A stretch of 60,576 bases of DNA, filler included, from Sluysia triapertura (Eukaryota), in NCBI GenBank assembly GCA_046118255.1. It is 4 parts of 4 records of this genome, joined end to end, with 100 filler letters (N's around TTAATTAATTAA, not from the genome) between each part and the next. Parts side by side here need not be neighbours in the genome. Positions count along the whole stretch, not along the records: positions 1 to 18,687 come from JBJNIA010130848.1; 3 more parts are not named here. The stretch is one strand, 5' to 3'. Below, piece by piece: positions 1-45,432 of this stretch (positions within the stretch are counted from its first letter, which is position 1; the number at the start of each line of letters is the position of its first letter). The translations under genes were made by a program, and so were the position numbers. Under the pieces are notes generated by a model. That model was not told the DNA's origin and did not search any database. It saw only the letters and a program-made list of their open reading frames with translations.

Positions 1-878
1 TGTTTATGCCTTTATGTGAGTCCTCTATAATATCCGGCTTACACGCTTAAGGGCTGATACATAGATGTCAGTGTAAGAATATGGCTGCATGTAATGGCAG
101 GTCAAAGAAAGTACTGAATTTTCTGTTGATTCGTTTGTTTAAGTAATATGTATTTTATATCTGATCTACTTTATAGGGATCTATTAAACGGATTTTGTTT
201 TAATATAAATTTACTTATCTGCTAATATGAGTCTAAAATTTAAATTAATTTTAAAATTATGTAATTTATCTGTGTGCGTATGTAAAGGAAATATGAATTC
301 GTTAGGTGATTCTCTTTAATTTGCGTTAAAACAAATAAGGCGACTTAGACCGTTAAATTAAAAATTAAGAATTGACTTTAATTTGTTTTATTTTTCTTTG
401 AAAAGGCTTTAATCAAAAAACTTAATTAAAATTTGTATAAGAATGAATTACAATAAGGTTATAAAGAAAAATTAACATGATAAGCTTTATACGTTAAAGT
501 AAAATATTCAATTAAAATTTAATAATTCAAATAACAATGTTAATAATATTATTGAACAATCATTAATATTATTATTAATTTCGTAATAAAATTTTACTAG
601 ATAAAAATGAACTCAAATTTTATAAATTAATTTTTAAAATTAAATCTTAATTCATTAACGATTATATTTGAACATAATATAAAACATTTGAATGTAATAT
701 AAAAATTAGTCTTCAGAATTATCGCTTGCCGATTAAATCGAAATATATTACCAATTTGGATAAATTTTGTTTCTCAAATCATATTTGTTTCTTAAGTTAC
801 TATTGAATAAGTTATATAAGTATTACTGAATTAATCCCTAATAAGTTTAATCAAAGTCTAACCTGATTTACCAATAGT

Positions 879-2080
879 ATGAGTAAATTTTCATTATATA
901 AGAATATATAGCTAAAATATATTTAAAGAGGACTATAAAGCTAAATTGAAAAGCTATACAACAAAAGTGACTTTATGTGATTATTTTAAAGATTATATGG
1001 TCCAATTAGCTAGAGAAATGCGCAAATTTAATGAAACAGAGGAAGATCCACTACGAATATGATAGTTTCTGCGAAGCCAATGGATGGAACGAAATATGAA
1101 AGATTAAAAAAATCCAAAATTATTTAACTGGAGTGGCGATCCAGACCTATAAAGAAATAAATGACAAGAATAAATTAACTTGGAATGCATCCGTAAATGC
1201 CTTTACCGAGGAGATTATGATACCGAGGAAAGTATTATAATAAAATGTTAAGTTTAAGAAAACAAAAACAGGAATTCTCCCAGAGCAAGAATAACAGAAG
1301 ATAAAAAATAAATTATATAAAGTGATAATAATTTACGCCCGGAATTAAGAACTTATGTTACATTAATTGAAGATGTACCTTTTAAGGAAATGATTAAAAA
1401 ATTAAGAAATATAGAAACATCTAAATATGGTGATAAAGATAATATTAATTATGTAAGTAATAACGAATATAAAAGCCCAAAACCTATAAGAAATAATACT
1501 AAGGATAAATATAATGATTCTACTAATCGATACAATAATCATGATAACCCTTCAATTAAGAATAACTCTTTAAATTATAATGAATATAATAGTAATAGGA
1601 ATAATAATTATAGATATAATAACCCCGCAGATGTATTTCTAATTGTAGGGGTAATCCAAGAAATTACAACAATTATAGAGAAAATAATTACAATACAAGA
1701 GGATTCCAAAATACTAGAGGAAATTGAAACAATAATTATGATTGAGCAAATTATGAACAAAGATCAGCACCAAGATTGCAACAAAATGGAAATATAAATA
1801 ATCAAAACAATTACAGTGGCACAAGAAAAGTCTGAATAGATATATTAAGAGACAAACTAATACAGAAGAAGAAATACGTTGCGATAATTGCGGAAAATAT
1901 AGGCACTCTGCAAGAAATTATAGGAATTTAAAACAAAATACATTTAGTCAGGATTTCTCTAAGAAAAGGGGCCCTCAGCAACAAAAATACCAAAGCCATA
2001 ATAGGAAAGTAAGGTTTAATGATAACAGTGAAAATGATAAAGGACAAATAAATTGCAATTATAGAAATCAAACAAATTAA
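879..2080 (+). pseudogene. gag: Ty3/gypsy gag relic with degenerate CCHC zinc knuckle
   Basis: Frameshifted/stopped ORF. N-terminal retrotransposon-gag motif (FNETEEDP...AEANGW...K at ~1025-1110), Asn-rich linker (ORF 1390-1797), and knuckle CDNCGKYRHSARNY at 1880-1921 (CX2CX4HX4C with the last Cys mutated). Confidence 0.75.
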
Positions 2081-2105
2081 AATTTCAAAAAAATGAATTC
2101 GAGGA

Positions 2106-3365
2106 TGTATTGTATCTTTTAATACTTTTATTTTCCCAACTTATTAAATTAAAACTCAATAACTAAATAAATTCAAAATCTCTATATATATTTTTTATAT
2201 TATCACAAAATTACAACCAAAGTATATAAATTACACCTTATAAAAATGTAAATTATTCTTTAAAGACAAATCACCACTAGGGACCACACAACTTATTTAA
2301 ACTTTAGCACCCGCATTAATGCAAAATATAAACAGTAAGAAATATATTACTAACCCTTGTTCTAAAAAGAAAATGGTTTATTTTAATCAATTTCTAAAGA
2401 AATAACTTTAGTTTCACCGCCATCCACTGATGAACTAAAGCAGCTTCCTACAATTGAAAAGTTAATTCGATTTTTCTTAACTCTGTCCTAATGTCAACTT
2501 CTCTTGCAGAAATGTAACTTTTTTATGTTAATTAGTAAAATTAAAAATCATAAATCGAACAAGACGGAAATTAAAACTGTCGATTTTATATTAGTCGTCA
2601 ATAAGCCGACCAATTTTGCTAATTAAATTTCAACGATAATTTCCGTTTATGTTCAACTTCATTATCATTCTTATTATCCAAAGATAATGGAATTTGTGGT
2701 AAACATCATCTAATATCATCTCATTAAAATTTAAAATCATTATTATACTGTTATTATATTAATAACGTAATTTGTCAACTTAATTATTTCATTATTTCGT
2801 GATAAAATTAATGAAATAATAAATTTATTTCTCACAGGAATCTTTTGCATACTACTTTATGGAATCGTACGTTGCACGTCAAATTCAATAACATATAAGC
2901 ATCAATTTGATATATACCTCATTAATACTTAGACCTCGGAACATATTTAACTTTAATTTTAAATTATAAAATAGCTAATTTAAATTTAAATAGCTAATTT
3001 TTACGTTATCTACGTTAATGTGCTTCGAAATACTTCATCATTAAAAATACTAATAAAACTCAATATTATACAGCAAATCCAATATCATTATATGATGGTC
3101 AAATATTTTTATTAACTTATCAAATTAAACAAATTTTAATTAAGTTAATTAATAAATGTAATTTAATATTTTAACAAATAAAAATTTGTAAAGGGTTATT
3201 TTTTCATATTTCTCATTATTTTGTTTTAATTCAAGTATTTTGTATGCTTATTTTACCATTATAATTCATCATAATACTTTATCTTAATTCTTCAGTAACA
3301 TTTGCCTTATTTTGTTATCCTCAGTTCTGACCTTTATCGACCTTTATCCTTCACTAATAGCAACA
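2106..3365 (+). mobile_element. LTR copy 1 (TGT...CAACA), probably a solo LTR inserted in the gypsy ORF
   Basis: ~1.26-kb direct repeat of 9406-10767, colinear but clearly diverged (shared blocks such as atccactgatgaactaaagcagctt, gttcaacttcattatcattc, ttattaacttatcaaattaaacaaattttaattaagttaattaa). TG...CA termini. Flanks gagga/gatgg could be a degenerate 5-bp TSD. Confidence 0.8.
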
Positions 3366-5400
3366 GATGGTTACCAATATGAAGAAGAAGAACCTAGAAG
3401 AAACAGAAGAAATAACAAGAAAAAACAAAGAAGAAGAGAATCGAGTAGTGACGAAGAAAATAACTACTTAAAATTAATAAATGATGAAGAAAAGAATGCC
3501 ATGCTACGAGAATTTTATATTACTGGATTGGATTGTGACAAAAACCGATTTAAGAATAAACAGGAAGACGTTTTCTTGAGTTATATGCACGATAGGTATC
3601 GAGAATTTCAAAAAGACAAACAACGACAATAACAGAATGAAAAAGAAGAAAACCGATTGGCAATACAACCAATCCAAACCAGGATTCGAGAAATAGACTT
3701 AATAAAATACGTAATTTTAAATGAAGATATGAAACAAAGAATTCAACAAATAATTGACAAATTGGAAAGTAAAACAAAGAAAATTAATAAAGAAATAGAT
3801 TCAGATTCAAGAGAAATTGAATAAATTGAATCAAATATAGAACCTAGTAATACAGGAGAAGAGGTAAAAGATTAAGATAATAAGGAGAAATCATTTGAAG
3901 AAATCAATTAAAGTGATAGTCAAGAAGCTGAAACAGATATTGAAAATGTTAAAAGTAATGATGATGAAGAATTACAAGTGGAAGAAATAGATGTGGATAC
4001 AGAAGAATAATCATACTTTAGTGCCAGTGAAAATGTGAAAATGGAAGAATAAATGAATGTAATTAAGGAATTTAAAAAGGAACCAATAAGTATTTTGGTG
4101 AATGAAAAAATGGATATCCCAGAATTACAAAGAGATCAGGAAGTTAAGGAATTTTTATTACATTTGGCTAATGGTATAACAAATGCTAAAAATTTAAACG
4201 AAAACTTAAATAATTACTTAGACTAGAATTAAAATTTATATGATATTAATTAATACTTGCTATATTAAGCAAAGAAGACGGTTCATGCAAAAATAAAGGT
4301 AGGAAACTATTAAGAAAAATAGGTCAAAACGAAAGAGATTTGATGAAAATAAAAATAATTATTAATAATATTATGAATATTTCAATGGAACTTCCAATAA
4401 CGTCAACAGTAAAGGATATTATAGAATTAATTAAATCAAATTATACAGGAATAACAGAAATTAACTTATATTTTTACGAGAGAAAGTTAATTCCCCATGA
4501 ATTTATAAATGACTACTGTTATCCATCAATGATGGAAACCATGAAGAATCATTGATAGCTTCAGCAATTATAAAGTAGTAAATCTTCTGATAATAATAAA
4601 ATTAGTAATAAATTTTTTGATAAGTTGGCTCAGAGTAAACCATTAATTGACCCACACCATGAAAAAGTGTCAGATGTCGATGTAGATAATTCTCCATGAT
4701 CACTATTAAAAGAATTATTAGAAGATGATTACAATAATAATAGCAATGATAAAAAATATATGGATAATGAAGTTATAGATATTACCAAAGATAATGATGA
4801 TTTTATTGAAGAAAACCTGACTATATAGAAACCCTCATATTGAAACAGAAAATAAGGAAACTAACATTCACAAGAAAACCAGATAGATATAGAAAAAAAT
4901 AAGGATAATAACGAAACATAGAAAACCCATTGATTTAACAAAAGTAACCTATAATAATAAAGAAGAAGCATTAGACACAAAAAGCTTAATTTACCCACTA
5001 CTGTGAAGTAAGTTCTATTTTGATAATTATAAAACATTATTACCCTAAATAAAAGATCACAAAGCTACATTAACAAGGATATTTAAAATTATGGAAGAAA
5101 AGTTACAAAAACACGAATATGTGATTATATAGATAACGGACAATATAAGTTAGTAATCACAAAACAAATTGATGTTTATATTAATAAAAAAACTTAAAAT
5201 TATGATAGCTTATTTAATATTTCAATGCAATAAAGCAACATTGTTAACTTTATAATTTTAAATAAAAGATTAAAATTATAAACTTTGTTGATAAGAAAAT
5301 TGACAAGTAGATAAATGGACAAGGATGATAGAAAAATATTATTAAGGAAAAATAAGAAAAGAGTAAACTTAATGAATCACTTAATTTAATATTAAAATTG
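3366..5400 (+). pseudogene. Degraded retroelement accessory ORF (basic and acidic low-complexity tracts) containing a UBL domain
   Basis: Purine-rich coding-like stretch with stops and frameshifts: DGYQYEEEEPRRNRRNNKKKQRRRESSSDEEN..., long Glu/Asp-rich tracts; lies between gag and the glycoprotein. Confidence 0.5.
4340..4555 (+). pseudogene. Ubiquitin-like (UBL) domain inside the retroelement
   Basis: MKIKIIINNIMNISMELPITSTVKDIIELIKSNYTGITEINLYFYERKLIPHEFINDY follows the ubiquitin pattern (MQIFV...LEV...TI..VK..I.....L.F.GK.L.....SDY). Confidence 0.55.
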
Positions 5401-5439
5401 ATTAACAATAACGAAATTTCAAATGAATCAACTCCACAA

Positions 5440-7158
5440 TTTGGAACGTAAATAATTGTTTTACTAGCGTTACTTGGAATTCATAAAACAAATGCTGTTA
5501 AAGCTTTTGACTGCAGCCAATCACAAATATGAAGAAAATTTTCCTTATTAGACACTGAAGACTGCCAAAAATCAAGACCAAATAGGGTTAAAATAAAAGA
5601 CAATATTAAACGTCTACTAAAAAGGAAATCTAGTTACTCCTTTAATTAGAGAATGCTCGGTTAAAAGATCCGTAGTCATATGGTATTGTGGACACCATAG
5701 TCATTCATCTATAAGTGATATATCAAACCATTTAAAATATCACCAAATAATTGTCGTTACGCTTCGAAAACCGGATATAAAAATTAAATAAAGGAGACAA
5801 ATCAAGGACTAAAAATAACGAAAAAATAATTTATAATATAAGGACATCTGGAAATGTACTGTTATATGGTACTTGTGAAAAAGCATCAATAGAATATGAA
5901 GGAAAGATTTATCATATTTTGTAACGCATTTGTGGTAACTTTATGATCCTTTAACGAAAGTTTCAATCTGGAAAAAAGTTGATTTTGTAGAATTAATAAA
6001 ACTAGTTTTGACACTGACGAATCAACTTTAATATATAAATTAGAAAAATTTCAATGCCCACTAATATTTTTAAAACAAATTAAGTTTAATTTAATATCTG
6101 GATTTATGTACTAAAATGAAGATTTAGCTGCCGAAGAAATATGTAAAAACAAAATCCATAAAGATAATATAGAAGAAACACAAAGAAAAAGACTAAATGA
6201 AATAGAAACTCCTACAATATTAAAGGCGAATAAGAAAGAGGATGGATTAATATTCGTATCAAAGAAATTAGTAATTAGATGTGGACAAGAAATAACTGAA
6301 ACCAGTTACCAAGGAATATAAGCGAAGAAAGGTGTAGATACAAAAAAATCTTTAAATGAATAAATATTTTAATTACAAAATTGACTTTTATTACCATTTA
6401 GAACTCATGTCATTAGAAAAGTTTACTAAGCGATAATAATCACAGATTTCCAAATAAATAAGGAAATTCTAAGAACCAAATTAGCTGTAAAAATAACAAA
6501 CACAGATTTAGTAGCGCCACTACTCCCTTTAGAATTAGTTTTTAGCAGATTAATGGGTGAAGTTTTTTATACATATAAAAATGATTCTACAAATGAATTG
6601 CCAGTCACATATAAAAATCAACTAACCTACCTAGAACCATTTATAAGAATAATTATGCCGATTAATAAATTAAAACCGAAAATACTACACTGCTCTAATG
6701 TTGTGGCACCTGAATAAAAAAATCTATGGATATCCGTACAACATCGAAACCAAGTTAAAAATCCGGAAACAAAGTTAAAATTTTCAGTCATAAAAAATAT
6801 TCCAAGTATTTATTCAAATGAAGATATTCGAGCATAATTGTACGAAATATTATTCACTATCAAAAGTTTTAATATAAATTGTTGACAAAGCGGTAGTAGA
6901 AAAACATGGCAGATTAAACTTCGAGTTATTACTAGAACCAGATCATTTCAAGAAAACAGCACATAATACCTTAAAACAAATATGGGGAAGTTTTTTGTAT
7001 TTGTTCAAGCATTTTCATGATTAATAGATATACACATAATAATTAAAGTTATTGCTCTTATTATATCCCAAATATTAGGTTTTACTTGGAAATTAATAAC
7101 AGTGTCTTTCTTTTTGGCTACATTTATATGCTTTAAAGAAAGAAATAAAATATTCTGA
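5440..7158 (+). pseudogene. env: Chuvirus-type envelope glycoprotein (env-like), degraded
   Basis: Signal peptide IIVLLALLGIHKTNA then VKAFDCS (5503-5517), FSLLDTEDC, RECSVKRSVVIWYCGHHSHSS (~5650-5710), KIDFYYHLE..., FSRLMGEVFYTYK (~6541-6580), NELPVTYKNQLTYLEP..RII, and C-terminal hydrophobic segments IIKVIALIISQILGFTWKLITVSFFLATFICF. These colinear motifs match chuviral G (AYDC, SLLDVGEC, HCGMHSH, AGEV, ELPVTY). Confidence 0.8.
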
Positions 7159-7266
7159 AGAAACAACATTACAAACAATCGATATGGAAGTAGTTAATAA
7201 AAGAAGAAAGACAAAACCTATATCAATCTCCTCCTATAAATTTAGATTATATAATGTGTGCAAATA

Positions 7267-7878
7267 ATAATATAATAGCGCACGAAGACCTGTATTAGAT
7301 ATGAAAGTAAATGGAAGAATATTATTAGCATTAGTAGATTCAGAAGCAGTAGCTCCCTTAATTAGTGAATCAATGCTAACTACTAAAGAACTTAATAATT
7401 TAGCTAAGCAACATTCGCATCTAAAAGGCATAACCGGAGATGAAATTTAAATCCTAAGAGTATTAAAAATATTATGTGAAATGTGTAAGAGTTTTACTGA
7501 AAAGTTATCTTACATAATACCTAGAGGTCAAGTTAACCTAATTAGCACGGTTTATCTCTTCAAGAAGGATGTTGGTCTTAATAAATCGCCTGGTCTTAAT
7601 TTTCAAGTCAACAATTATTACTTAGTCACGTTTCAAGTTAGTCTTTATTTTAAGTTATAACGTAATTGGAAATTATGAATATAATTAGCCTTTATGCTCT
7701 AATCAAAAATTAAGTGTTAAGCTAGCCTTTATGGTCTGGCTTGCAAATAAATCGCATTTTATACATTTAAGATAGCCTTCTTAAGGTCCAGCAGATAAAT
7801 CTATATTTTAAATTAAGAATTAAAATTTAGTAGTCAAAAATTCTTAAGAGTTAGTAATCAATATTACAACTAAGAAGC

Positions 7879-7918
<40 letters not shown>

Positions 7919-9405
7919 TGAAATTAATTACTTAAGGATTTTAATTCCTTAGTAATGATTCAAGATTTTAATTAAGCTGGTCTTTAAGATCTAGTGTTCA
8001 ATATTTTTAATATTCGCTTAACATATAATTAAACTTAACAAAAATAAATTACTTTTGCATGAATATTGTCTTGGACGAATATAATTTTCTTCCAGTCTAC
8101 CACAATAGAAATTCAGCCATTTAAATAGTTAAATTTCTACTGTGGAAGCCACATTGAAAATCAATTATTTTGATTTAATAAAACAAATTAAAATTATATT
8201 TCTTTAAAACACAATTTCAGTTTCTTTAAAATAAAATATTTATTTTTTAATTTCTTTAAAATAAAATTAATATTCATTTTATTTAATTACAAAATTTATA
8301 ATCTTTGTTTAAAATAAAATTAATATTTATTTTATTAACAATGTTTATTTTATTAACAAAATTTATTTTATTAAGTTTAACTTTAAAATTAAACTTTTAT
8401 AATATTAATAATAAATTTAATAAAATAAATACAATAAATACATTATAATAAATACATTAACATTAAGCGTTCTTACAAAGAGGAAAAAATTAAATGTTGA
8501 GTAATGCGAAAATTCCCAGAGATATTAGGTATGGATGTACTATCACAACTAGATTTCATCAAAGTCACACGAAAGGACAGCTGTACTGATCGACCAATAG
8601 AGGACGACGATGTAACACTAGAAGAAGAGAATATATAATCCCAGGAAAAACAAATAACTTAAAAATGGTTCATAGCATCAAAAATTAATCAGGAAAAGTT
8701 ACATATTGGAATAGCAAATTCCGTCTTTAGAATTCGAGATAATAATATACCTATAAGAATAAAAACTGCATGGAAAAAAATTAATGGATATTTGCAGGAA
8801 CTAAATTATAATATTAAATTATAAGTTAGAATCACAAATAAAGTAGTATCAAATAATAAAATAAGGAGATATAGATTACAAGGAGATATAAATTACAAGG
8901 AGATATAGACACTGAAGATGAAGAAGATTATGAATAAATACAAATAAAAAAAGAATTTGACTAAACAACAAAAAGAAATATTAATTAGGGTAATTTATAG
9001 ATATCCATGGGCAATAGCTAGAAATAAATATGGTGTAGGAGATTCAGTAATTATAATACATGAAATTCCATTAATCGAAGATAAAGTTATTAGAAATAAA
9101 CCATTGAGAATACATATGTGTAATCAACAATGAAGAAGGCTTGGCTTATTAGACCAAACATCTTACCATTTTCTTCACCAGTACTACTGGTAAAAAAGAA
9201 ATATGGAACCATGAGATTTTGTATGGATTTGAGAGAATTAAATAAAATAACAAGTAATGATTTGTTTCCACTACCAAATGCTAGTGGAAATGCTAGTGGA
9301 TGAAATGCTAGATAAACTAGGAAATAAAAATATTTTACTACATTAGATCTTCAAAGTGGTTACTGGCAAATCAAAACAGCAGAGAAAGATAAGCATAAAA
9401 CAGCC
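7267..9405 (+). pseudogene. pol: Ty3/gypsy pol relic: retropepsin plus N-terminal RT, split by a solo LTR and truncated by LTR copy 2
   Basis: RPVLDMKVNGRILLALVDSEA (DSG-type site, 7337), LKGITG, then after the insertion PEILGMDVLSQLDF. RT motifs PFSSPVLLVKKKYGTMRFCMDLRELNKIT (~9167-9251) and YFTTLDLQSGYWQIKTAEKDKHKTA (9331-9405). Confidence 0.9.
7484..8477. mobile_element. Solo LTR of a second family inserted within the protease
   Basis: 994-bp non-coding block with inverted termini TGTAAGA...TCTTACA. It separates the DSG and ILGMD halves of the retropepsin. TSD imperfect (aaatg/aagag). Confidence 0.7.
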
Positions 9406-10767
9406 TGTTGTTGTGCCTTTTATACTTTTTATTTTACAAATTATTAATCAAAACCCAATAACTAAACCATTTCAGAATCTCGATATATTCTTTGAATTAT
9501 CACAAAATTACAATTAAAAGATATAAACTATTCTTTCTAACAACGAAAATACAAATTATTCTAACAAAATACAAATTATTCTTTATAACAATATTATAAA
9601 CTGTTATTTATAACGTAAATTACTCTCTAAGAACAAATCACAACCAGGGTGACACAACTTAAATCTTCGCACCCGTATTAAAGAGTAAGAAATATAAAGA
9701 GTAAGAAATATATAAAAAAACCTTGTCCTAAAAGGAAAATGGTTTATTTTAGTCTTATTGCTGAAGAAATGACATCAGTTATCCACTGATGAACTAAAGC
9801 AGCTTCCCTACAGTTAAAAAGTTTGCTCTATTTGATTTATCCTGACTCTGTCCTTTTCACTTCTGTTTTAATTGCAGAAATGTAATTAATAATTAATAAT
9901 TAATGCCAATTAATAAAATTAAAAATCAGAAATCGAAATCAGAAATTAAAGCTGTCGATTTTCTTTTAGTCGGAAATAAGCCGACTAATTTCGCCGATTA
10001 AATGTCGACAGTAGATTCCGTCTGTGTTCAACTTCATTATCATTCCAATTATTTAACGATAATGGGATATGTGGCAAACAATCCCCTTATCTTCTTAATA
10101 TCATCTAATTAAAATTTAAAATCATTGTTACATTGATTTTATAATAATAACGTAATTTGTCAACTTAATTAAACGATAAAATTAATGAAATAATAAATTT
10201 ATTCCTCGCAGGAGTATTCTGCATTAGCACGTTGTGCGTCAACCGTAAGTTGCACGTCATGTTCAAGAACATATTTGAATTGGTCTCTCTATAAGAATTA
10301 ATTTGATATATACTTTATTAATACTTAGACATCGGAACATTTTTAACTTTAATTTTAAATTATAAAAATTAATTAAAATGACTAATTTTTACGTTATCTA
10401 CCTTGACTTGCTTCGCAATATTTCATCGTCAAAAACACTAATAAAACTCAACATTATACACTAAATCCAATATCATTATATGATGGGCAAATATTTTTAT
10501 TAACTTATCAAATTAAACAAATTTTAATTAAGTTAATTAACAAAAAACTTTAATATTGTAACAAATATTTCTCATTTGTTATTTCTCAAATATTTCTCAT
10601 TTCTCGTATTTCTCATTATTTTATTTTGATTTAAGTATTTTATATGCTTATCCTACAATTACAGTTCATCCTAATACATCATTTTAATTTTTTAATAATG
10701 TTGAACTTATTCTATTATCTTTAGTTTTGACCCTTACATCTACCTTTATCCTTTATCAATCTCAACA
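9406..10767 (+). mobile_element. LTR copy 2 (TGTTG...CAACA) interrupting RT
   Basis: Direct repeat of 2106-3365 with perfect 5-bp inverted termini. Begins immediately after the RT KTA codons; no TSD visible (cagcc/tatct). Confidence 0.8.
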
Positions 10768-11497
10768 TATCTCTGTTCGCCAAGAAGTCTTTGTCCTCAA
10801 GGACTATAAACAATTACCTATCAATACGTAGTAAACAAGGAAAATAAATTAAAGATGACAAAACAATGAATTTTAATCGGTCCACAGTAAATTTATACAA
10901 TACAAAAGAAAGAAATGAATGCAATTATTTGCTTATTAGAATTATTTATCATCGAATTTTGCCGCAATGTTTAATAATAATAAAAGGAACTCTGGAAGGC
11001 TTCATTTAAGTTGAATCTTGGCGCGTTGATGCGGAACAATTTTACGCACGTCCTGGAACCAATATTTCACCAGAAAAAAGAAAAATATACATTAACATAA
11101 AGTTTACAGAGGATTTAATATGGTCAATTGAATTATATTTACAATTTTATTAATTTTGTACAGTTTATGCGTATGTAAAACGTTATAAAATTATAAAATT
11201 CTAATTAACAAATGTACTTGTTAATTAAAAGTTAGTCAATGTTTTTCACTAACGACTCCATTTATGTAATGATCATAATTGTTTCCTGATTATGCTCAAT
11301 GATTTTAATCGATTTTCTAGAAGTTGGCGTCTCCTATATCTTTTACTTACAAATGGACAGAGACACACTTGTAAATTTTACGATGCGTTCTCTTTTTCAA
11401 TTAAATTTATTCAATTTTTTATATCAGATTTGGGATTAATATAGCTCCAAACGTATCATATTACTTCCCTTCAATTACGTTAATAGGTTTTATTTAC

Positions 11498-11532
11498 TAT
11501 ATAAAGCTGCCGTTTATTGACTATAGTCATTC
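11498..11532 (+). promoter_or_regulatory. TATA box plus initiator
   Basis: TATATAAA at 11498-11505 and TCATTC (TCAKTY Inr) at 11527-11532, ~30 nt apart, just upstream of ATG 11548. Confidence 0.5.
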
Positions 11533-11547
11533 ATATGGCAGCTTCCA

Positions 11548-12195
11548 ATGGAGGTGAGTTATCTTGTGGATAACATTTAGCTTACTTTAAAATATAATTT
11601 CCTTATTTTTCTACTTTTCATTTATTCTTTATTTTCTATTTTTCTTAGCTACTTATCTTTAGGTTTCAATAATCTTTTATTAAGCATAAATTTCAAATTT
11701 ACTTAAGAACATAAATAAATTCACATATTTTTATAATATAAGGAATTTATGCATATTTTTTCTTTTTAGGTCATTCAAAACAAATTAATGGAATTGATTC
11801 CATATACGGACGAAGAAAAGCATTTCAGAATTCTTAAAGAATTAAAAGAACATTGTAGAAGTGCAGATATGGCAGAACTTATTCTAAGAAATTTCCATCA
11901 CATTCCAGTTAAGCAAAAAGTAAGGAGATTCCGGAAAAAGACTGTCATCATAAAGGCAAAAAATTTAATACCGAATTGTGTCTCTACGGTGGAGAGAAAA
12001 TAACTGCGCTGGTAAGATACCATGGAAGTCGAAAAAAACACAACAATTTCTATGTTGGCTCGGATAGTACAACGAAAGGCACACACCACAAATAAAGTCG
12101 AAATAAACTATAAGGGCCAGCAATTAAGTGGTCTAGGGAAGGAGTTCCTCTTCTTAGCAAATAACGCCTACCATGAGGTCCATGAGATTATTTAG
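11548..12195 (+). pseudogene. Small two-exon gene with C-terminal UBL-like segment and two in-frame TAA stops
   Basis: ATG GAG|gtgagt intron 11554-11769 (tttttag) joins in frame to ORF 11788-12003. Reading through TAA 12001 and 12013 gives MEVEKNTTISMLARIVQRKAHTTNKVEINYKGQQLSG..., ending TAG 12195; AATAAA at 12251. Confidence 0.45.
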
Positions 12196-13153
12196 AAGAA
12201 TTTAGACGTTTATTATTTACATTTTAGTGTTTTTAATTTTTTCTTTTGATAATAAACCTTAGTGCTTTATAGTTATTTCTTATTTTATATTTGAAAGAAA
12301 TATTTGTTTTAAAGAATTTAAATTATTTTTTTGACTCCTTTAACTATAAATATATTTGCCCGGGTCTAAAGATTTTGATTTTTTCTTTAATTTCTTTGAA
12401 ATTATCTTTCAGTTTATATAGTGCCGTGTACAACTCATGTCTAAATTAATTGTTACACATTTTGTTTTAATTTATTACTTTATTTTGAAAAAATATCAAG
12501 AGTTACACTGCTAATCTGAACTAAATTACAATTATTTTATTTTCGATATAACTACACTATTATATAATTTTTCATTTACTCTTCTCAAGAATAAATGTAA
12601 TTATAAAAAAATTGCATTTCCACATATTGAATATTGATCCTTTCACGTTACTTATTCAGAATTAGGTTATACAATCAAATGTTTACATATCTAATTATAA
12701 AATATAACATAAAGTACATTTAAAAATCGTATACCAACTGTTAAAAAAAATTAAATTTACTTTTTTTACTTACTTTTTTTAATTGGTTACACCCAAAGGG
12801 TTAACATCTATTAAAAATAAATTATAAACATATTAATTGCACCGGTCTAAAATAGATTAATAATAACAATAATAATATATAATTTCAAGCATTATCAAAA
12901 CAAATTACAAAATACAAGAAAAATGTTTATCAATGAAAAACAAGATAATAATAAAGATTTGATTTAGTTAAATAATAAATAAAATGTTTCACCATTCAAT
13001 ATGAAACAAAATATACTGCATTGTTTTACAAGATTTTTACGAAAATATAAATTCGGGTGAAGAGCTATAAAAAGAAATACTTCAAAGCTAAAATCAAAAC
13101 TGAATGCCTTGTAATGTCTGTTTTCTATTACACCTTTTCTCTAGGTAATCGAA

Positions 13154-14780
13154 TCATGTGAAGGTGACTATCCAATCTGAATCAGAAATACCAGCCACAG
13201 CACATCCACCACTAGTTGTATTCATACATATATCCATATTCTGAACTGGCATCTGTTGCAAATTACTAGTCTGACACGAAGAAGTATGTCTTAATTCTGA
13301 AGCTACTGAGGTACTGCTTCCTCCACTACCAGTTACATTCAACATATAGGCAGTATCAGATTGTTGAGATCTGGAACTACTACTTGCAGTACCCCGTTTA
13401 AACTGTGTTGGAAGTGATGACTGACGACTACCTATATATTCTGGTTACAAATCCAGGTTAGTTAAAGAATCCACATATACGGTACCTGCATATGGACTAA
13501 GTTGAAATAGATGGTAAAGAACTATAGTAAAATATATTCATCAGCAACAATTATGAAATATCAAATACAAATCTCAAAACGAACACAAAAATATTAACTA
13601 TATGCACAAAGTAAACAAATTAATCTTAATAAATATAAATAATATAAATATAAATAATAAATATAAATAATTTTCTCTTATTTAGCGAAATCTTAATTTT
13701 ATTAATGTCTTTATCGATTTTATCAAAATAATCATTAAAACTATTTAAACTCTCTGAATTGGCAACAATAAATGTTCCTTTTTTGAGCATTATTGGAATC
13801 ATTTTCATCATAACTTTCTGTTAAGAATTCTTCTAAACTAGTATAATTGACTGAATAATTATTAATATGAATTTTTAGTTCTTTTTTATATAATCATATG
13901 ATTTTACAATCTGTTAAATTTTTGTAATATCTTTAATCGATGTATCGTATTTGACTGTCATTGTCATCGTCGTGTCACTTTTTCAACTTTATGTATTTTA
14001 AAATTCAAAAGATTATTAAAGTTTTTTTTCTTTTACTGAACCGTATTTTGATTTTCTTTCAGAGCATAATTCATCAGTAAAATTTATATTTTCCATTCAA
14101 TATTTAAACAAGATTCAATTCTTTTTCGGTCATTCGCAAAATGTCCTCTGATGCATCACATCCTGTGCCGTAGATTCTAAGAAAAACACAGTGATAGGAC
14201 ATGTGGAATTGCTCCATGCATAATATGTGTTAGATCAGTTGCTGCCGCTGACAAAGTATATAACTGTGTAGCAGTTGTGACTGGAACTGCAGCATTTTTT
14301 CCATTTTTGAAACTGATAAACAAAGGGTTAACATTAGTGTCCCTTTGATTTAACTTAGGAAATTTTATCAAGAAACTACATCATTGGCATCTAGTGGCAT
14401 CATAAAAATATTAAAAAATAATTATTAATAAAATGATTAATATAGTCAAACTTTTTTATTTTTCTGAACAAAATAAATATCATCTTTTAATGATATCATA
14501 TTTAATATCGTCTGTCTGACCATTATATTTTGCCAATATCAACCTGAACTTTACTTTTATATTCATTTGGAGAAGCAATTCCACTATCTGTACTTAGAGC
14601 TTGTTCTAGTACAGGAATCATAATTTCAAATACATTTAAAATACAAACTATGAATTTTAAAATAAAACCAAGAGGTTTTATATCAAATTTTACTAAACAA
14701 TTTTCATAATCAAAAAGGAAGTTCGTCATTATTTGTTAATTACTATCGCTCATATTGAATTTTGCTACTACTACGAACAT
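13154..14780 (-). pseudogene. Protocadherin/cadherin-like relic
   Basis: Fragments FDYE...TDSGIASP..KVQVDI (14523-14729), LDAND (~14380), TLSAAATD, LFQLSPYAGTVYV..LD (~13455-13520), and Ser-rich tail ending GCAVAGISDSDW, resembling the delta-protocadherin CM2 motif (C..EC...GHSD.CW). Internal stops present. Confidence 0.5.
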
Positions 14781-16223: not shown

Positions 16224-17266
16224 TTAAACGTAAGACTCTATTACATAATTGGCATTATCGTTTACAAGAATATCACAATTTGCATAAATATTATCGTGAT
16301 CCTCAACAGTCTTAGCAAACTCATCTAACCACAGTAATTCCTTTTCGATACTATTAAACGTATAAAATTTTGTAGCAGGTATCAGTAACGCGTATGCCGG
16401 TTTACACTGCCTCGTAATATCTCTTTCGAATCTATTTTTAAAACTACAATTATAAAACAAAATAATCCCTAACATTATCAATACTCCTATTGCCATAATT
16501 AATATGTAGTCCTATAACTGTGGTTGTAAAATTATGCTTGTAGTAAATCGTTGCATGGACTTTTGAGTAATTCATATAAGTTATATTTACTACTGACTTT
16601 ATAAAAATTTTTGATGTATAATAAATTTTATTTGACCATTTACTACATTATTTTGACGATAGATAATTTTTATATCGTGTTACACTTACGATTTTGAACC
16701 AAATGATTAACATTGTAACTTATTTTAGCTTTTAAATATTTTGTATCTTTATAAAAAGAATATATTGTTAGTGGAATTATTTCAATGTCAATTATTTGGT
16801 TCATATCCTGGTAGACAAATATGACTTCAGTAAAGTAATGAACTTCTTGTCCATGTTTCAGTTTATAATAATATGTAGTGTAAATACTACGCCAACTTAT
16901 ATATAAATGTGTTTCATTAAAATTGTTAATTTCTATATATGTAAGTACTTGCAAAACAGGATACATTTCTTGGTTAGTTTTTAATGCTTTATTTCCTACT
17001 TTTATAACAACTATATAATTGGTGTCGGGATTTAAATTAATACATAAAAATAAGTTTTCATTTTCATTATATGTTGCATGATACATTTCATATTCATTTT
17101 GGCATGTTACTTTATAAAGATAATCATTATCAATAACAAATTTAGGTTTGATTTTTATGTGGGATATTTTAGAATCAAACGCCCAGTCTTCAATATGAGT
17201 GCCATCCCTTGCCCAAGTCATCATAATACATATGCAAATTATTAAGTATGTAATCAATTTAGACAC
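16224..17266 (-). pseudogene. Signal peptide + FN3-like ectodomain + transmembrane protein in the env position of a gypsy element
   Basis: KLITYLIICICIMMTWA signal-like stretch; FN3 signatures NLNPDTNYIVVIK and NETHLYISWRSIYTTYYYKL; after a disrupted linker, TM DYILIMAIGVLIMLGIILFY and a ~75-aa tail (ORFs 16670-17266 and 16224-16496). Confidence 0.6.
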
Positions 17267-18116
17267 ATTAGGTGTTTTTAAGGTATAATTACTTGCTTCG
17301 TTTTTATGAATTTCTCCAAAATTATTAGGTGGATTATTTCTTAAAGTATAAGGATTATTTATTTGAAATTTTTTACACCTATTTTTATGAACTATTTTTA
17401 TGGACTATAGATTCACATTTTTTCTTTCTATATAATTTTATTTTCAGATTCTGCTGGTGGTATCTTCAACGATATAATGACCATCATAAGGTTTGTAGAA
17501 TTTATTACTTAGACCTTTTTTATGTAAGGAGTATACAATAATATTAAATCACCCTTTTTAAATTCTGTTGGATTAACCTTACTATCATAGTATTGTTTAT
17601 AAGACTCCTTGTAAAACTTTACATTCAATTTAGATCTTGACCATACTTCTTTCATTCTTTATTTCATTATCTGTAAATAATTGTCTTTTCTAAATATTTT
17701 GATGAATTAGGTATTAAGGACAAATCCACAGGTAATCTGGTTTCTCGAAGGTACATTATTAAAATGGTGTTTCTTTAGTAGCTTTATGTACTACATTGCG
17801 GTATGCAAATAAACAAGGTGCATTGAATTCATCCCAATCATTTTGGAGATCATTATTATATGCAGATAGCATTCGTATTAATGTGCGATTAAATCTTTCA
17901 ACTAAACCATCGCTTTGTGGACGGTAAGCAGATGTTGTCTTATTAATGTGGAAAAAGTTACGTACTTCTACCATTATTTCATTAGTAAAATTAGTGCCTT
18001 GATCAGTAATTAATTTTTTGGCGGACCATATCTAAAAATAATTTCTTCTATAAAAATTTTGCTATTGTTGATTCTCTTTGATTCTCTTTTGCTTCAGGCC
18101 ATTAAGTAAAATTATC
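17267..18116 (-). pseudogene. pol: Ty3/gypsy integrase core and C-terminal GPY/F region
   Basis: DNFT*WPEA...EEIIFRYGPP..LITDQGTNF, TTSAYRPQSDGLVERFNRTL..ML..DWD....LFAYR...H.ATKETPF (17759-17974), KQYYD...FKKGDLILL, KFYKPYDGHY (GPY/F), IVHKNRCK. Confidence 0.9.
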
Positions 18117-18174
18117 TGATGGTTTACTAAATTAGCAGAATTTGATTAACAAAAATATATACTACTTATACTAA

Positions 18175-18440
18175 AGTAGTATAAGTAAATTTTCATTATA
18201 TAAGAATAGATAGCCAAAATACATTTAAAGAAGATTATAAAGCTAAATTGACTTTATTTGATTATTTTAAAGATTATATGACCCTTTTAGCTTGAGAAAT
18301 GCGCCCTTTGACATTACCAGAAATGCACGAATTTAATGGAGTAGAGGAGGATCTCTGCGATTTCCTTTATGAATATGATAGTATTGCCGAAGCCAATGGA
18401 TGGAACAAAATAGAAAAAATTAAAAGAATACAAAATTTAA
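18175..18440 (+). mobile_element. gag: Second copy of the gag 5' end (paralog of ~875-1125)
   Basis: Colinear similarity with 875-1125 (agtaaattttcattatataagaat, tataaagctaaattga, gattattttaaagattatatg, cgaagccaatggatggaac); encodes EFNGVEEDLCDFLYEYDSIAEANGWNKIEK. Confidence 0.8.
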
Positions 18441-22558: not shown

Positions 22559-23408
22559 ATGATAATGAAAAAAATACTTGAATTAACTGAAAAATTGGAA
22601 AATGCAATTGCAAACAAAAAGTTAGCGGAAGCTAAGAAATTGGTTAAGGAGTTATCAGGAATAAAATTGCCTGTTACTGTCACAGAAGTTAAGGAAAGTA
22701 AAGAACGAAGAGCTAAGTATAATTTTAATTTGAAAAATATATTTTGTTTAGAGTTAAGGTTTATGTATATGACTGTGATAAAAGAGAAATGGATTTGGAT
22801 ATAGAAATTAGTACTGAAGATACATTTTTAGATGTAAAGAAATCGGTATGTTTTTTACGTTTTAATTAACTATGAAATAGTGAAACTTATTTTATTATTG
22901 TTTTTTCAATTTATTATTATGATTGGGAGTTAAACTTCAGAATTTAAGCCAACATTGTTTTCTCTATGATAATTATACATAGATAACTGTTTATGTAAAT
23001 ATAACAGTTGCTGATCTTAGAAGGATTCTGAATTAAGAAGGGTGTTTTCTGTTTGTGCAATAGAGATTTAATATTCTGCATTGAAGGATTTGAGAATAGG
23101 TAACTTAGTAAATAAGTCTAGAGCATTCTCTTAATTTGAGTGTCAATCTAAATTAATAATATTGTATATTATTAAATGTTATTACAATGGCAGCTATGAT
23201 AAATTACTTAATATTAAATTAAAATGATTATAATTTGTAAGATTTCTCTTTGCAGTTATTCAATATTATCTTGTATAAAAGTAAAAATTCCTAAAGAAAT
23301 AATTACTTCAGCAGACAAATGTGCATCTAAGGCAAAACTTACCGTAACTATCAAGAATAATAAAGTAGAACATGATCTATTTTTCATATATCTGTTTTAT
23401 CTATTAGG
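22559..23408 (+). CDS. SHARPIN/HOIL-1(RBCK1)-like LTM + UBL protein, 5' exons
   Basis: Exon 1 22559-22716 (LTEKLENAIANKKLAEAKKLVKELSGIKLPVTV, LUBAC-tethering-motif-like). GT-AG intron 22717-22751 (35 nt) preserves frame. Exon 2 22752-22845 (KVKVYVYDCD...LDIEISTEDTFLDVKKS) then gtatg donor. Putative exon 3 from ~23242 (KIPKEII...KCA...TIKNNKVEHDLFFIYL) matches the second half of the UBL. Confidence 0.55.
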
Positions 23409-34179: not shown

Positions 34180-34815
34180 ATGTGTAAGCCGGAAAAATTT
34201 TATGTCTTCAATTCAATTACAAGATTTTCTCAAAAGAGGATTGGAAGATGTAATTTATTAGATACTCGTGAAGTAAGAAAATGTAAAGCTGCCTACATTG
34301 TTGTAGCTTATTCTGTAAATTTCAATTCAAGATCTATAAAAGTAAAGAAAGATATCCAGTGTTTGATTAAAACAAGACCTGAAGATAATGTGATCATTTA
34401 TAATAATAAAGGTGAAATAAATGATTTATTAAGTACTTTCATTGGTCTTGCACAACAGTTTTCCACGTAGGTTAAAATTTTAGAAGATGTTTATGATATG
34501 TTCTTTAAATATTGTCAAAAAGAATGCTTTGAGATATCAATAAATCAAGATGATTAAAGTCATACAGATAATTCTATTCCAGAAGATAATTTTAATGCTT
34601 ATATGATAGAAATATTACCATATTTGTTTATAGGAAATGAAATTCACGCAATTAATTTTAAAATGTTAGAATAAAAAAGAATAATTCATTTTCTGAGCGT
34701 TACGCATTATGTCAAATTTAATCGAAATAAATTCACTTACGAATGGTTGAAGATTGTCGATATGAACAAGGAAAACGTGTGGAAACATGTTCATGAAGCC
34801 AATAATTTTTATTGC
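34180..34815 (+). pseudogene. MAP kinase phosphatase (DUSP)-like: rhodanese domain plus truncated DSP domain
   Basis: LLDTR...AAYIVVAYSVN, NVIIYN, VKILEDVYDMF (rhodanese), then in the same frame through stops IEILPYLFIGNEIHAINFKML..RIIHFLSVT...YEWLKIVDMNKENVWKHVHEANNF (DSP N-half). No HCX5R motif seen; no introns. Confidence 0.75.
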
Positions 34816-35059
34816 TAGAGATAATGTTTAATCTAATTGATTTCGAAAGATCATATAAAGTGGAATTCTTCCCATACAGTGAACATTTCTATTTTACTCG
34901 TCTTGTGAAAGCAATTTCAAATGAAAGATTTGAAGATACGAGGAACTATCTTAGTGAAATCATGATTAGTCACAGAAAACCTCCAATGCGTTAAAAAATG
35001 AATCCCATTCTTGGACATATGGACGTTTCATCAACAATAATCTTCATGAAGCCACAATC

Positions 35060-38790: not shown

Positions 38791-39225
38791 ATGTAATATA
38801 GTATTCACTAAACTTTAAAATTGATTTAATTTAAAATTATTTTGAAGTAAAATTAAGAAAATTTCTATTAGGATTAAAATGCTTTTCATCAATTTAAAAT
38901 GAGAATTAATATAAATTCAAAATTTAAGAACAAATAACGTTTAATTTCAGCTTTAATAAAAAAAGAGTCATTTTAAAATGAGATTTTATAAAGGTAATAT
39001 GACATTAAATTGTAACATAATGTTTGAGTCAAAATTATATTAATTTGAGATCAAGTAAAATTAGTATACAAATAAAAATTAATAGCATTATTCTCGATCA
39101 AAATCCATTTAAATTAAAGATTGAAAGAATGTTATACTAAATTTAAAAGCATTTTAATCGACAAAAACGTTACTAAAATGAGATTAAATATAAATTATAT
39201 GAAATTAAAGATTATTTGGACAAAG
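38791..39225 (+). repeat. Dispersed duplication, paralog at ~47182-47680
   Basis: Shared colinear blocks ttaatataaattcaaaatttaa, tcattttaaaatgagatt, gagtcaaaattata, cattattctcgatcaaaat, aaatttaaaagcattttaatcga. Confidence 0.85.
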
Positions 39226-39316: not shown

Positions 39317-40960
39317 ATTATTATTATTAACTATTATTATTGTACCATTTACTATTGAATTAATTATTGTTATTATTGCTTATTGTTGTACCGTTAATTA
39401 CGGAATTAATCATTATTACTTATTATTATACTATTAACTATTGAATTGATTGTCATTATTAATAATAATTATTAGACTGTTACTTATTAATGTACTGTTA
39501 TTATTGAAAATTTTTTACATATGAAAATTTAACACCATATATATTATTATATGGTATTTATTATTATTCAGTATTTACTGTCTAGAAGTGAATGTTAATT
39601 TTATCTATCGTCTGGAAATAAATCGCTAATTTGGAAATTTATTATCCAGAAACAAACGTTGAATTTAACCTATTGTCTGGAACTAAATCATTACTTTGGA
39701 ATTTAACTGTCTTAAAATAGATCATTAATTTTGAAGTTTATAACTCGTCAAGTTTGAAGATTACCATACTATTTTAAAGGAGACGTCATTCGAATATTAA
39801 TCATTCCAAAGAATAACAACCTTATATTGATCGTGAAGCAAACTATTAAAGTAATTTTACTAAGCTTTTTTTGTCCACATATATAAATACATATATATAA
39901 TAATTCTAATTTGTAAAATTCTTTTTTATTTTAAAATCAACAAAAGAGACTCATTTTTGACTAATAAATTTGTATAACTACATTTTCTTCACCATTTAAA
40001 TAAATATCATTGTTTTTATTTTGTTTTAATTTTTAACGAGTGCAGACATCCCAAAGAGAAAAGAAAATTATTTTAACATTTAAAGAAATAAAATTAGAGA
40101 GTTATATCGTAGTTAATAACACTTACACCTACTTAATTAAAGCGTTTCCATTCCCTGTCATCGGAACTAGTATTCGAACTCGGATCTCTGGAGAGACTAA
40201 GCGAATAATAATTATACGACAGTACGATATAGAAAGCTATTAGTGAATAACGATAACCTAAGAACTATGTTAAGTTTCAATTAATAAATTATAAATTTAT
40301 CAATTTATAAAAAACGTAAATCTAACATAATCGATATCAATTAGGATTTTTCTAATATTACGGAGAAGTTCTATCGTGCCCAACAAATTATTCATCGGGT
40401 CTTAAATTTAGTATCTAAGTCTTACCGAAATGTACTTCAACATATTTTTGTTAGTTAATAATAATAATAATTCTAAATAATTTTACAATCTTACGAATTT
40501 TTCAGTTAATATATTAACGGTAGATGTTAATTCGACAATTACAATCACTTTCTTTTTCAGAATTATCTGCGTAATAACAAAAGATATCAAATTTACACAT
40601 CTTTGATTTCAAAAGTACTAGTCATTCTTCCTCAGACATTGATCTATAAACATTCAAAATGTATTCTATACGACCATTTATCAAATTTAAGGTTGAACTA
40701 ATGGATTTTCTATTAAGTCATTTTTAAGGAGCTTGTTGAAATTCCTTTTTATTGAATATCATGATTTTGGAAAGTTTGCTTTAGATTGTACGATGAAGAT
40801 ATTAAGAAAATCGAAAGATATTGAAAATCAATAAATATTCAACTACGAAATACATTCTGGTCGCCTCTGATGAATCTATATTTATTGATATTTTGAGTGC
40901 AGTGTTAATTATTGCTACAATTATTAACTTTACATGGACCACTATTACCAATGCGATATA

Positions 40961-41145
40961 TGAGATGGCCGAGATAATATTGAATCCTTAAGGGATTTAA
41001 AATTTAAATTATCATTATTCAAATTCAAAATGGACGTAAGGTCCTTAAGAATAATTAATCTACAAGTTAAAAAGTTAGCAAAATTATTGTTAATATATTT
41101 TATTAAAATTTAAAAATTAAGATTTAATACAAAAATAAGAAAAAT
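40961..41145 (+). repeat. ~185-bp direct repeat, copy 1
   Basis: tgagatgg...aaattatcattattcaaattcaaaatggac...acaagttaaaaagttagcaaaa shared with 45433-45618. Confidence 0.9.
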
Positions 41146-41170: not shown

Positions 41171-41404
41171 TTACAGCGCCATGTTTACAGCTAACGAGTC
41201 AGCGGCATCGACATCGGAACTGCCGGGTATCTTATGAGTAATTGCAATCACAGCTCCATCAAAAATGCTGTAGTCAGAGAATGTAAGATTTTCCCTTAAG
41301 GGTTTGTTCTGATAGGAAAACCAGACATCCTTATGATTTCTCGCGCCGAATAAGGATTTTTTTGGCCCTTTGACAAACTTTTTGTTTAATTTAAGGGAGA
41401 ACAC
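41171..41404 (-). pseudogene. Ubiquitin-like domain at the 3' end of a long decayed minus-strand ORF (~41171-42900)
   Basis: DVWFSYQNKPLRENLTFSDYSIFDGAVIAITHKIPG aligns to ubiquitin [35 protein letters not shown]. It is in frame with ORF 41417-41752 across one TGA. Confidence 0.65.
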
Positions 41405-45151: not shown

Positions 45152-45432
45152 TTTATTTATTGTGCTTCATTTCGACTTTAGAGAACAGGGAAAACAAAGA
45201 ATATTTATATTTTTGTAAATATTTAGACATTTATTTGATTAAAAAATAATTTTATCGATTAAAAAATTATTTCCGTCGACATCGTCCAACTCGCCACGAA
45301 AAACATCTAGAACGGAACATACACATAAAAATAGCAATAAAAATAATCAATATATACACATCTCAATAGTATCAGGAGTGGGATTTTATGTAAGTATGTG
45401 ACTGTACGTGGCAATAAAAGTACAGTATATAT

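Follow-up and report, generated by a model that had tools for sequence, protein, structure and literature searches.

A dead, partial Ty3/gypsy retrotransposon copy with a chuvirus-type glycoprotein between gag and protease, probably of the planarian Burro/GYPSM1 kind

Organization of the locus

The window analysed here is a stretch of 60,576 nucleotides of Sluysia triapertura DNA (filler included), in which an element at 879..9405 had been annotated as carrying a chuvirus-type glycoprotein between gag and protease. Frameshift-aware profiles built from relatives alone (with the window excluded), each tested against codon shuffles, recovered on the + strand, in this order, gag, a ubiquitin-like domain (UBL), the glycoprotein (G), a retropepsin (PR) and a reverse transcriptase (RT), and the order and motifs proposed in the initial annotation were confirmed at their places on that strand. 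The copy is dead: it has been interrupted by three later insertions as well as by stops and frameshifts, its RT is lost upstream of the YxDD motif, and no coding part of it is an open frame, the pieces lying in several frames.

A broken remnant of the gag capsid (CA) was recognized by its profile at 875..1450 (+; ends approximate), with a tested core at 1055-1225 (49.8 bits; 0/40 shuffles as high) and colinearity with the gag of the relatives L002 and L003. The zinc knuckle of the nucleocapsid, annotated as a CCHC motif, is present at 1871..1918 (+; 23.6 bits, 0/100 shuffles as high) but degenerate. A non-coding repeat of approximately 1.26 kb (2109..3364, unstranded), which has TG..CA ends and may be a solo LTR, separates gag from the accessory region; its second copy, found by self-comparison at 9408..10768 (unstranded; 76% identity), truncates the RT at 9405, upstream of YxDD, and terminates the element there. 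The possibility that these two 1.3-kb repeats are the element's own LTRs was rejected, because gag lies outside them, because other contigs skip the first copy (in run X1, with junctions at 2083-3378 and 2085-3468, two contigs each among the matches listed), and because L002 is colinear with the window without it.

The accessory region (3370..5430, +) is acidic and of low complexity, and the 'long accessory ORF' described for it is actually a set of pieces in several frames. Within it, the annotated UBL was substantiated at 4346..4528 (+) by the relatives-only profile (33.8 bits; 0/60 shuffles as high); a first HMM search of the whole window had detected neither UBL nor BCL2, and the UBL was found later with a better profile. 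A UBL profile that includes the window matches single ubiquitins in the PDB at E 8e-4, pairwise tests against five relatives gave a z of 4.6 for one and at most 2.1 for the other four, and an atlas score of 0.87-0.89 serves as a lead only. At the place expected for a BCL2-like remnant the window scored 15.5 bits, a value reached by 32/200 shuffles, and a marginal 20.3-bit match lies elsewhere in the window. In the relatives, a BCL2-like domain was matched by Pfam in P0003 (E 9.6e-4), and a profile built from them matches Bcl-2 at E 1.2e-3.

The class III glycoprotein

The envelope glycoprotein, with signal peptide, ectodomain and transmembrane segment (TM), occupies 5452..7158 (+). The roughly 1.7-kb gene that had been annotated is indeed full length, matching positions 7-623 of a 623-position profile across 5452-7146 (420 bits; 0/8 shuffles as high), but is broken into several frames by nine stops and eight frameshifts. 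The motifs AFDC, SLLDTEDC, MGEVFY and ELPVTYKN lie at 5503, 5542, 6553 and 6595, and YCGHHSHSS lies in a different frame at 5684. The Pfam family Monjiviricetes_fusion (PF24664) matches the window G at E 8.3e-12, and a phmmer search with it returned 37 matches (best E 4e-48), the best of them 28-34% identical to it; full-length G members of the family are 38-56% identical to one another, and the nearest viral glycoproteins reach 17-22% only. A word-index search with the mixed-frame translation of G passed 0 of 5850 candidates, and the G profile found no PDB match by sequence (best E 0.32). A predicted fold, of middling confidence, for the G of relative P0003, rather than for that of the window, matched herpes gB at E 3.4e-11 (TM-score ~0.25; pLDDT 58.5) and a chu-like virus G at E 8e-34. 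As initially annotated, the window G is a chuvirus-type class III fusogen, its gB-like fold being predicted from the P0003 model. No relatives were found in IMG/VR or in prokaryote genomes.

Protease, spacer and reverse transcriptase

The protease is present as an N-terminal part at 7280..7543 (+), with a degenerate active-site motif at 7331, and a C-terminal part at 8510..8566 (+), scoring 49.2 and 26.7 bits (each 0/40 shuffles as high); the Pfam RVP match to the N-terminal part (E 7.5e-4) falls just under the cut-off. Between the two parts lies a secondary AT-rich insertion (7544..8490, ends approximate; unstranded) with an (AAT)n tract and imperfect palindromes. PR and a gypsy RT had been described as following in close succession, and since this insert of approximately 950 nucleotides splits the protease, PR is not adjacent to RT. 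A remnant of the PR-RT spacer, at the dUTPase-like position 8690..8761 (+), is homologous to the spacer of the relatives (25.8 bits; 0/40 shuffles as high), whose top PDB match is a dUTPase, though a weak one (E 0.43).

The RT at 8948..9405 (+) is an N-terminal half that scored 151 bits (0/20 shuffles as high), carries the motif LDLQSGYWQ at 9343 and is matched by RVT_1 at E 3.1e-8. Among solved structures it is closest to Ty3 RT (E 2.6e-16; runner-up 1.8e-4), in agreement with the annotated Ty3/gypsy assignment. In an RT tree its 92-aa fragment sits on a long branch without placement among the relatives, two of which (P0021 and P0023) are set apart as a distant pair. Neither RNase H (RH), integrase (IN) nor an LTR pair was found with the gag-to-RT copy: an integrase profile gave none on the + strand of 10770-13500 (17.3 bits; 3/10 shuffles equally high), and self-comparison of the whole window gave no repeat pair bracketing the gag-to-RT span. 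Across the window, no Rfam families or tRNAs were detected. Pfam at its curated cut-offs matched no host genes.

Relatives and copy number

Of the 37 phmmer matches, 18 were scanned with Pfam, picked as best-scoring and longest. PR follows G within one ORF in 12 of these 18 relatives. Continuity of frame from gag through G to PR is unreadable in the broken window copy, and the suggestion of a single polyprotein was borne out in intact relatives, which encode Gag(CA, CCHC)-UBL-(BCL2-like)-signal-G-TM-PR(one or more)-dUTPase-like-RT-RH-IN as one ORF. One of them, L002, is a single ORF of 3703 aa whose gag-to-RT part runs colinear with the window. The order PR-RT-RH-IN was found in P0004, P0007, P0021, P0023, P0040, P0043, L001 and L002, Retrotrans_gag in P0016, zf-CCHC in P0008, P0020, P0021, L002 and L003, and ankyrin repeats (Ank_2) in P0040 only. 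Characteristic domains of BEL/Pao pol and gag are Peptidase_A17 and DUF1758/1759; Pfam listed these for no scanned relative, and the RT is Ty3-like. The distance from the TM of G to the PR motif is approximately 108 codons in the window and 122-205 aa in 13 of the 14 relatives in which both were located, the exception being L001 (833 aa). The fetched loci of relatives (GC 30 to 38%) show no internal direct repeat and are apparently incomplete.

In run X1 (19,988 records), up to 69 contigs, among the matches listed, differ at one G site; pieces of the window's own copy are present at a depth of 10-23, and the diverged contigs cover G as they do RT. The run thus holds many diverged copies of the family, and G is a heritable component of a multi-copy family rather than a one-off viral insertion.

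A second membrane protein after integrase

In the relatives, the polyprotein usually continues past IN, where a further signal-like segment precedes an ectodomain and a TM. A separate fragment of the same family, on the - strand of the window at 16224..18119, holds an integrase (18119-17366; 72% identical to that of P0007 over 89 aa) followed, at 17404-16224, by a beta-rich domain between a signal-like segment and a TM. Its post-integrase part matches P0007 at E 4e-13, and the fragment scored 313 bits. The pattern of a signal-like segment plus a TM was seen in this fragment and in six of the seven relatives that extend beyond integrase, the seventh (P0023) having three hydrophobic segments. 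For the post-integrase protein, Pfam gave no family at E 0.01, and its model (pLDDT 50.6) gave no Foldseek match at E 0.001; the best VIA hits (Z 3.3) were beta-sandwiches, including cytokine receptors, and the assignment to FN3 is an atlas score of 0.91 only. The running text of the papers available yielded no description of such a protein. It is a tentative and rather doubtful proposal that each polyprotein carries two type I membrane proteins, namely a gB-like fusogen before PR and a signal-ectodomain-TM protein with FN3-like repeats after IN. If it were true, the second might serve for attachment or act as a receptor decoy, and the element would enter cells with two proteins, both released from a polyprotein threaded through the membrane in the manner of flaviviruses. 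The host, too, may lie outside Dugesiidae.

Comparison with known elements

Nematode ERVs reportedly possess a continuous gag-env-pro-pol ORF. In the available text of Arkhipova & Yushenova 2019 (PMC6431247), planarian Burro elements are described with the order gag-UBL-BCL2-env-PR-dUTPase-RT in a single ORF with env in frame, and the env of Burro/GYPSM1 is reported to match mononegavirus fusion proteins. These elements are giant (>30 kb with LTRs), have planarian hosts, vary in their MATH, BIR, AIR1, Smc and ankyrin motifs, and include decayed copies with stops and frameshifts in Dugesia japonica. BURRO1 transcripts increase upon PIWI knock-down (PMC8532177). The family studied here shares with them, as far as that text describes them, Gag (CCHC), the Ubi2/SUMO-like domain, an in-frame env between gag and pol, PR, possibly the dUTPase-like segment, RT, RH and IN, and the BCL2-like domain and ankyrin repeats (P0040) are shared by the relatives only. 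It differs in that the window copy is partial and dead with no BCL2 remnant detected, in that Pfam listed MATH, BIR, AIR1 and Smc motifs in none of the scanned relatives, and in the length of its ORF (3703 aa in the most complete relative versus 4873-5140 aa); the available Burro/GYPSM1 text makes no mention of a post-integrase membrane protein.

Chary & Hayashi 2026 (PMC13524379) described gypsy elements of GAG-ENV-POL order with gB-type env from bryozoans, flatworms and nematodes, along with 114 arthropod elements in which a chuvirus-like G lies next to gypsy pol; they argued that the env-pol association is ancient, found GAG-ENV-POL elements not to be monophyletic, and reported 45 and 215 copies for two Platyhelminthes C1a elements. 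The latter 'ancient errantiviruses' (Smed_errantivirus_1-6) likewise have a Ty3/gypsy pol, lie in multiple copies and carry a gB-type env upstream of pol; their HSV/gB-type ENV appears to show the same domain I-II motif pattern, as judged by eye and by short motif rather than by alignment. By such motif search and reading by eye, domain I opens with YQE in all six published Schmidtea Env, and CGHHSH occurs in one sequence of the supplements, from Schmidtea. That study covers intact copies only, and the words Burro, polyprotein and fibronectin are absent from its main text. Nematode non-canonical ERVs (Sacco et al. 2022, PMID 35550022, as cited in PMC13524379) also place env before pol in a Ty3/gypsy element, and the nematode Env rows in the supplement, examined by eye, lack the motif pattern of the window family. 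Mosquito Anakin elements (Dezordi et al. 2020, PMC7642597, as far as its text was available) similarly amplify a chuvirus-type G by means of an LTR retrotransposon, but belong to BEL/Pao (Pao), whereas the window family is Ty3/gypsy with G in frame inside its polyprotein.

Identity of the element and competing explanations

Taken with these descriptions, 879..9405 is likely a dead, partial copy of a Burro/GYPSM1-like Ty3/gypsy LTR retrotransposon, in a host that is probably planarian. The gag-UBL-env-PR-RT layout is genuine, but has been described before in planarian Burro elements. The observation made in the initial annotation therefore stands and its interpretation holds in part, while its novelty does not: the matching in-frame order that it took for a candidate new family is already in print for planarian Burro/GYPSM1 in the available text of PMC6431247. 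The independent event it envisaged, in which a gypsy lineage recently captured a chuvirus G and founded a new family, is very improbable. The nearest viral folds are indeed those of chuvirus and chu-like G, and PMC10084718 reports no clear capture by gypsy elements; against this, identity to viral G is far below that among full-length family members (17-22% versus 38-56%), the same layout is published (PMC13524379 and the part of PMC6431247 available), and the former argues for an ancient association of env with pol. Smaller still is the chance that an endogenous chuvirus G dropped once into a dead gypsy copy, as the heavy breakage of the window copy and its three other insertions might suggest. 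The best matches are retroelement polyproteins that carry G in frame, many diverged contigs cover G as they do RT, and the gap from the TM of G to PR is close to that of the relatives; in-frame G in relatives and the colinearity of L002 largely refute that reading. Nor does G look like a solo Jingchuvirales glycoprotein insertion, which would lack an in-frame retroelement context and be closest to viral G.

It is also unlikely, though less so, that the copy belongs to a sister GAG-ENV-POL gypsy lineage of a non-planarian host, outside Burro proper, shorter, without MATH/BIR and perhaps without BCL2. Consistent with such a lineage are the wide spread of relatives (including the distant RT pair P0021/P0023 and the GC range), the low identity of the window G to its best matches, the undetected BCL2 remnant, and the lack of monophyly reported in PMC13524379. 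The UBL, the PR-RT spacer and the G motifs nevertheless agree with the planarian description, and decay by itself reduces identity. An AT-rich, (AAT)n-rich window presumably fits a triclad, which also counts against a non-planarian host.

A proposed route to enveloped particles

For the Burro/GYPSM1-like element favoured here, the polyprotein would thread the ER membrane. Its internal signal peptide would send G into the lumen with Gag kept cytosolic, and a single strong TM (in 13 of 13 relatives, the first TM has a hydropathy of 1.89-2.41 and the second stretch one of 1.01-1.71) would bring Pol back to the cytosol, where the protease could release RT and IN. Under this proposal, Gag, G and Pol would therefore be made 1:1 at one membrane, which may favour the budding of enveloped particles that fuse by means of a gB-like trimer and pass between cells. 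The UBL and BCL2-like domains may target the ubiquitin and apoptosis pathways of the host, a role suggested in the available text of PMC6431247. In the accessible literature, neither particles nor fusion activity are reported for such elements.

Implications

Since the headline layout was already published, the contribution of the window copy is a decayed member of the group and perhaps a host not recorded before. The analysis also links the Burro elements described in 2019 with the GAG-ENV-POL errantiviruses of flatworms described in 2026. In the portions of text available, neither description cites the other; the two look like one kind, with an Env of the chuvirus/gB class. The questions that arise are mechanical: by what route a single ORF yields Gag, a class III fusogen and Pol across the ER membrane, and which role the post-integrase protein plays. 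They bear on any cell-to-cell movement of enveloped retrotransposons in stem-cell-rich animals.

Structure and decay of the element

No long open reading frame occurs anywhere in 879-9405, which lies within AT-rich eukaryotic DNA (17-34% GC per kb across the window) containing (AAT)n tracts, and the copy of the element found there is dead and partial. The pieces named in the initial annotation, from gag to reverse transcriptase (RT), were all found in the same order on the plus strand, confirming that the element is real. When window frames were scanned against Pfam with stops read as X, one of the three frames of 5400-7250 matched Monjiviricetes_fusion (E 8.3e-12; 44.3 bits versus a cut-off of 27) and 8452-9450 matched RVT_1 (E 3.1e-8), while RVP on 7151-7700 scored slightly below its cut-off and the gag and accessory frames gave no match. 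Domains were placed using frameshift-tolerant profiles made only from relatives, with scores compared against shuffles, none of which reached the real score for any placed domain. These profiles located, on the plus strand, Gag CA (1055-1225), a degenerate zinc knuckle (1871-1918), a ubiquitin-like domain (4346-4528), the envelope glycoprotein G (5452-7146, covering nearly the entire profile and broken by 9 stops and 8 frameshifts), the protease (PR) in two pieces (7280-7543 and 8510-8566), a remnant of the PR-RT spacer (8690-8761), and RT (8948-9405). A BCL2-like stretch, which in relatives stands immediately upstream of the G signal, was not detected in the window copy by the profile test.

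A non-coding repeat of approximately 1.26 kb with TG..CA ends (2109-3364) separates gag from the accessory region, a second copy (9408-10768, 76% identical to the first) interrupts RT before YxDD, and the protease is split by an AT-rich insert of approximately 950 nt; no integrase was found on the plus strand in the 2.7 kb beyond that second repeat copy (10770-13500). The two repeats, at which no clean target duplication was found, may be solo LTRs that belong to an abundant family; their summed depth in X1, the one sequencing run whose contigs cover the stretch, is very high (80,000-320,000). Onto 700-9410 map 19,988 contigs of the same run, with a depth of 10-23 for pieces identical to the window and summed depths of 55,000-92,000 across mid-G and 45,000-69,000 across RT; at one G position as many as 69 contigs differ, and two joints (2 contigs each) skip the first insertion. 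Summed depth does not count copies, and X1 could itself be the sample from which the window came, so these data indicate many diverged copies and nothing further; no G-PR junction of another copy was visible among the contigs listed.

Elsewhere in the window, repeat pairs were observed at 38816-39191 and 47217-47611 (75% identity), 40956-41145 and 45427-45618 (80%), and 42305-42442 and 43754-43891 (100%). Four stretches below Pfam cut-offs are possible host genes or pseudogenes: 22560-22866 (+), which by eye we take to be a SHARPIN/HOIL-1-like start, a rhodanese-phosphatase-like stretch (34180-34830, +), a ubiquitin-like ORF (41174-41416, -) and a rhodopsin-type GPCR piece (43389-43643, +).

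Relatives and the polyprotein

The X-read G frame drew 37 phmmer matches (best E 4e-48; the top eight 28-34% identical). PF24664 was matched by all 18 scanned relatives. In 12 of them a protease shares the ORF with G and lies behind it; the remaining six stop in or just past G. The ORF continues through RT, RH and IN in the proteins P0004, P0007, P0021, P0023, P0040 and P0043 and the loci L001 and L002. L002 is a single ORF of 3703 aa whose gag-to-RT part is colinear with the window. The earlier guess of one polyprotein was right, as judged from intact relatives. At a third locus, L003, one in-frame stop (3057-3061) lies between the gag-accessory frame and G, before the G signal, and may represent either decay or a read-through site.

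The ubiquitin-like domains of relatives are matched by Pfam (E 0.0025-0.031) and PDB (E 8e-4), and their PR-RT spacer bears a weak dUTPase likeness (E 0.43). Aspartic protease domains are repeated in P0008, P0040, P0004 and L001, with up to six Pfam stretches in P0040, which also carries ankyrins; some of these repeated proteases stand after integrase. Weak RNase_T (DEDD exonuclease) matches were observed in separate ORFs after the polyprotein, at L001 10617-12104 (E 1.4e-5) and L002 12085-13470 (E 1.1e-3), and L002 has a further 222-aa ORF (11375-12040) without domain assignment. P0007 is HBK71150.1, a retroelement polyprotein filed at NCBI as a Flavobacteriaceae MAG protein, and is most likely animal DNA inside a bacterial metagenome bin.

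Origin of the glycoprotein and published elements

The proposed class III fusion fold was supported by structure prediction on the relative P0003, whose G model (pLDDT 58.5) matched herpes gB (E 3.4e-11, TM about 0.25); its match to the G of tick chuvirus and chu-like viruses was stronger (E 8e-34, 17-22% identity). Since identity to viral G is so low, an independent capture from a chuvirus, if any, was probably not recent.

The RT is Ty3-like, as first claimed, and Pfam listed no BEL/Pao families for the relatives; Anakin is a Pao element (PMC7642597, PMC12440569). The claim of a new family did not hold, as this kind of element is already in print. Burro/GYPSM1 elements of planarians are described in PMC6431247. 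According to PMC13524379, gypsy elements of the GAG-ENV-POL layout whose env is of the gB type occur in Nematoda, Bryozoa and Platyhelminthes, and 114 arthropod gypsy elements carry Chuviridae-like G; against this stands PMC10084718, in which no clear case of a capture by gypsy elements emerged. By eye, the six Schmidtea Env of PMC13524379 have a pattern in common with the family of the window element: among the supplementary sequences searched, YQE opens domain I in all six, with five other occurrences elsewhere, in other groups, and the single instance of CGHHSH belongs to Smed_errantivirus_6, an element labelled GAG-ENV-POL. The window element resembles Burro in how it works, shows most of the testable defining features of Burro and, on those features, is a probable member of that group. 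Its host is probably a planarian.

Proposed mechanism

In relatives a hydrophobic signal precedes G, and in 13 of 13 one strong transmembrane segment (TM) follows it, then a weaker second stretch. From this arrangement in intact members, we infer that the internal signal would direct G into the ER lumen while Gag remained on the cytosolic side, and that the TM after G would return Pol to the cytosol. Cutting of the chain by host signal peptidase and the element's own protease would leave Gag, G and Pol in equal amounts at one membrane, as would suit the budding of enveloped particles that might fuse via a gB-like trimer.

A second membrane protein after integrase

In six of seven long relatives, integrase is followed by a beta-rich domain that lies between another signal-like segment and a TM at the C-terminus; P0004, P0007, P0040, P0043, L001 and L002 carry this tail in frame. 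The domain is a candidate FN3 according to the atlas, a domain-scoring resource (score 0.91, a lead only). A fold model of the protein (pLDDT 50.6) had no Foldseek match at E 0.001, its highest VIA score (Z 3.3) was to beta-sandwiches that include cytokine receptors, and Pfam listed no family at E 0.01. A second fragment of the same family in the window (18119-16224, minus strand) consists of an integrase, which shares 72% identity with that of P0007 across 89 aa, and behind it the same tail of signal-like segment, beta-rich domain and TM. A gag-start fragment (18177-18437, +), 70% identical to 875-1121, stands head to head with that minus-strand integrase. The post-integrase membrane protein was not found in the literature searched, and Sacco 2022 and Grohme 2018 may bear on the point; it is the single lead from this element that is worth a further look.
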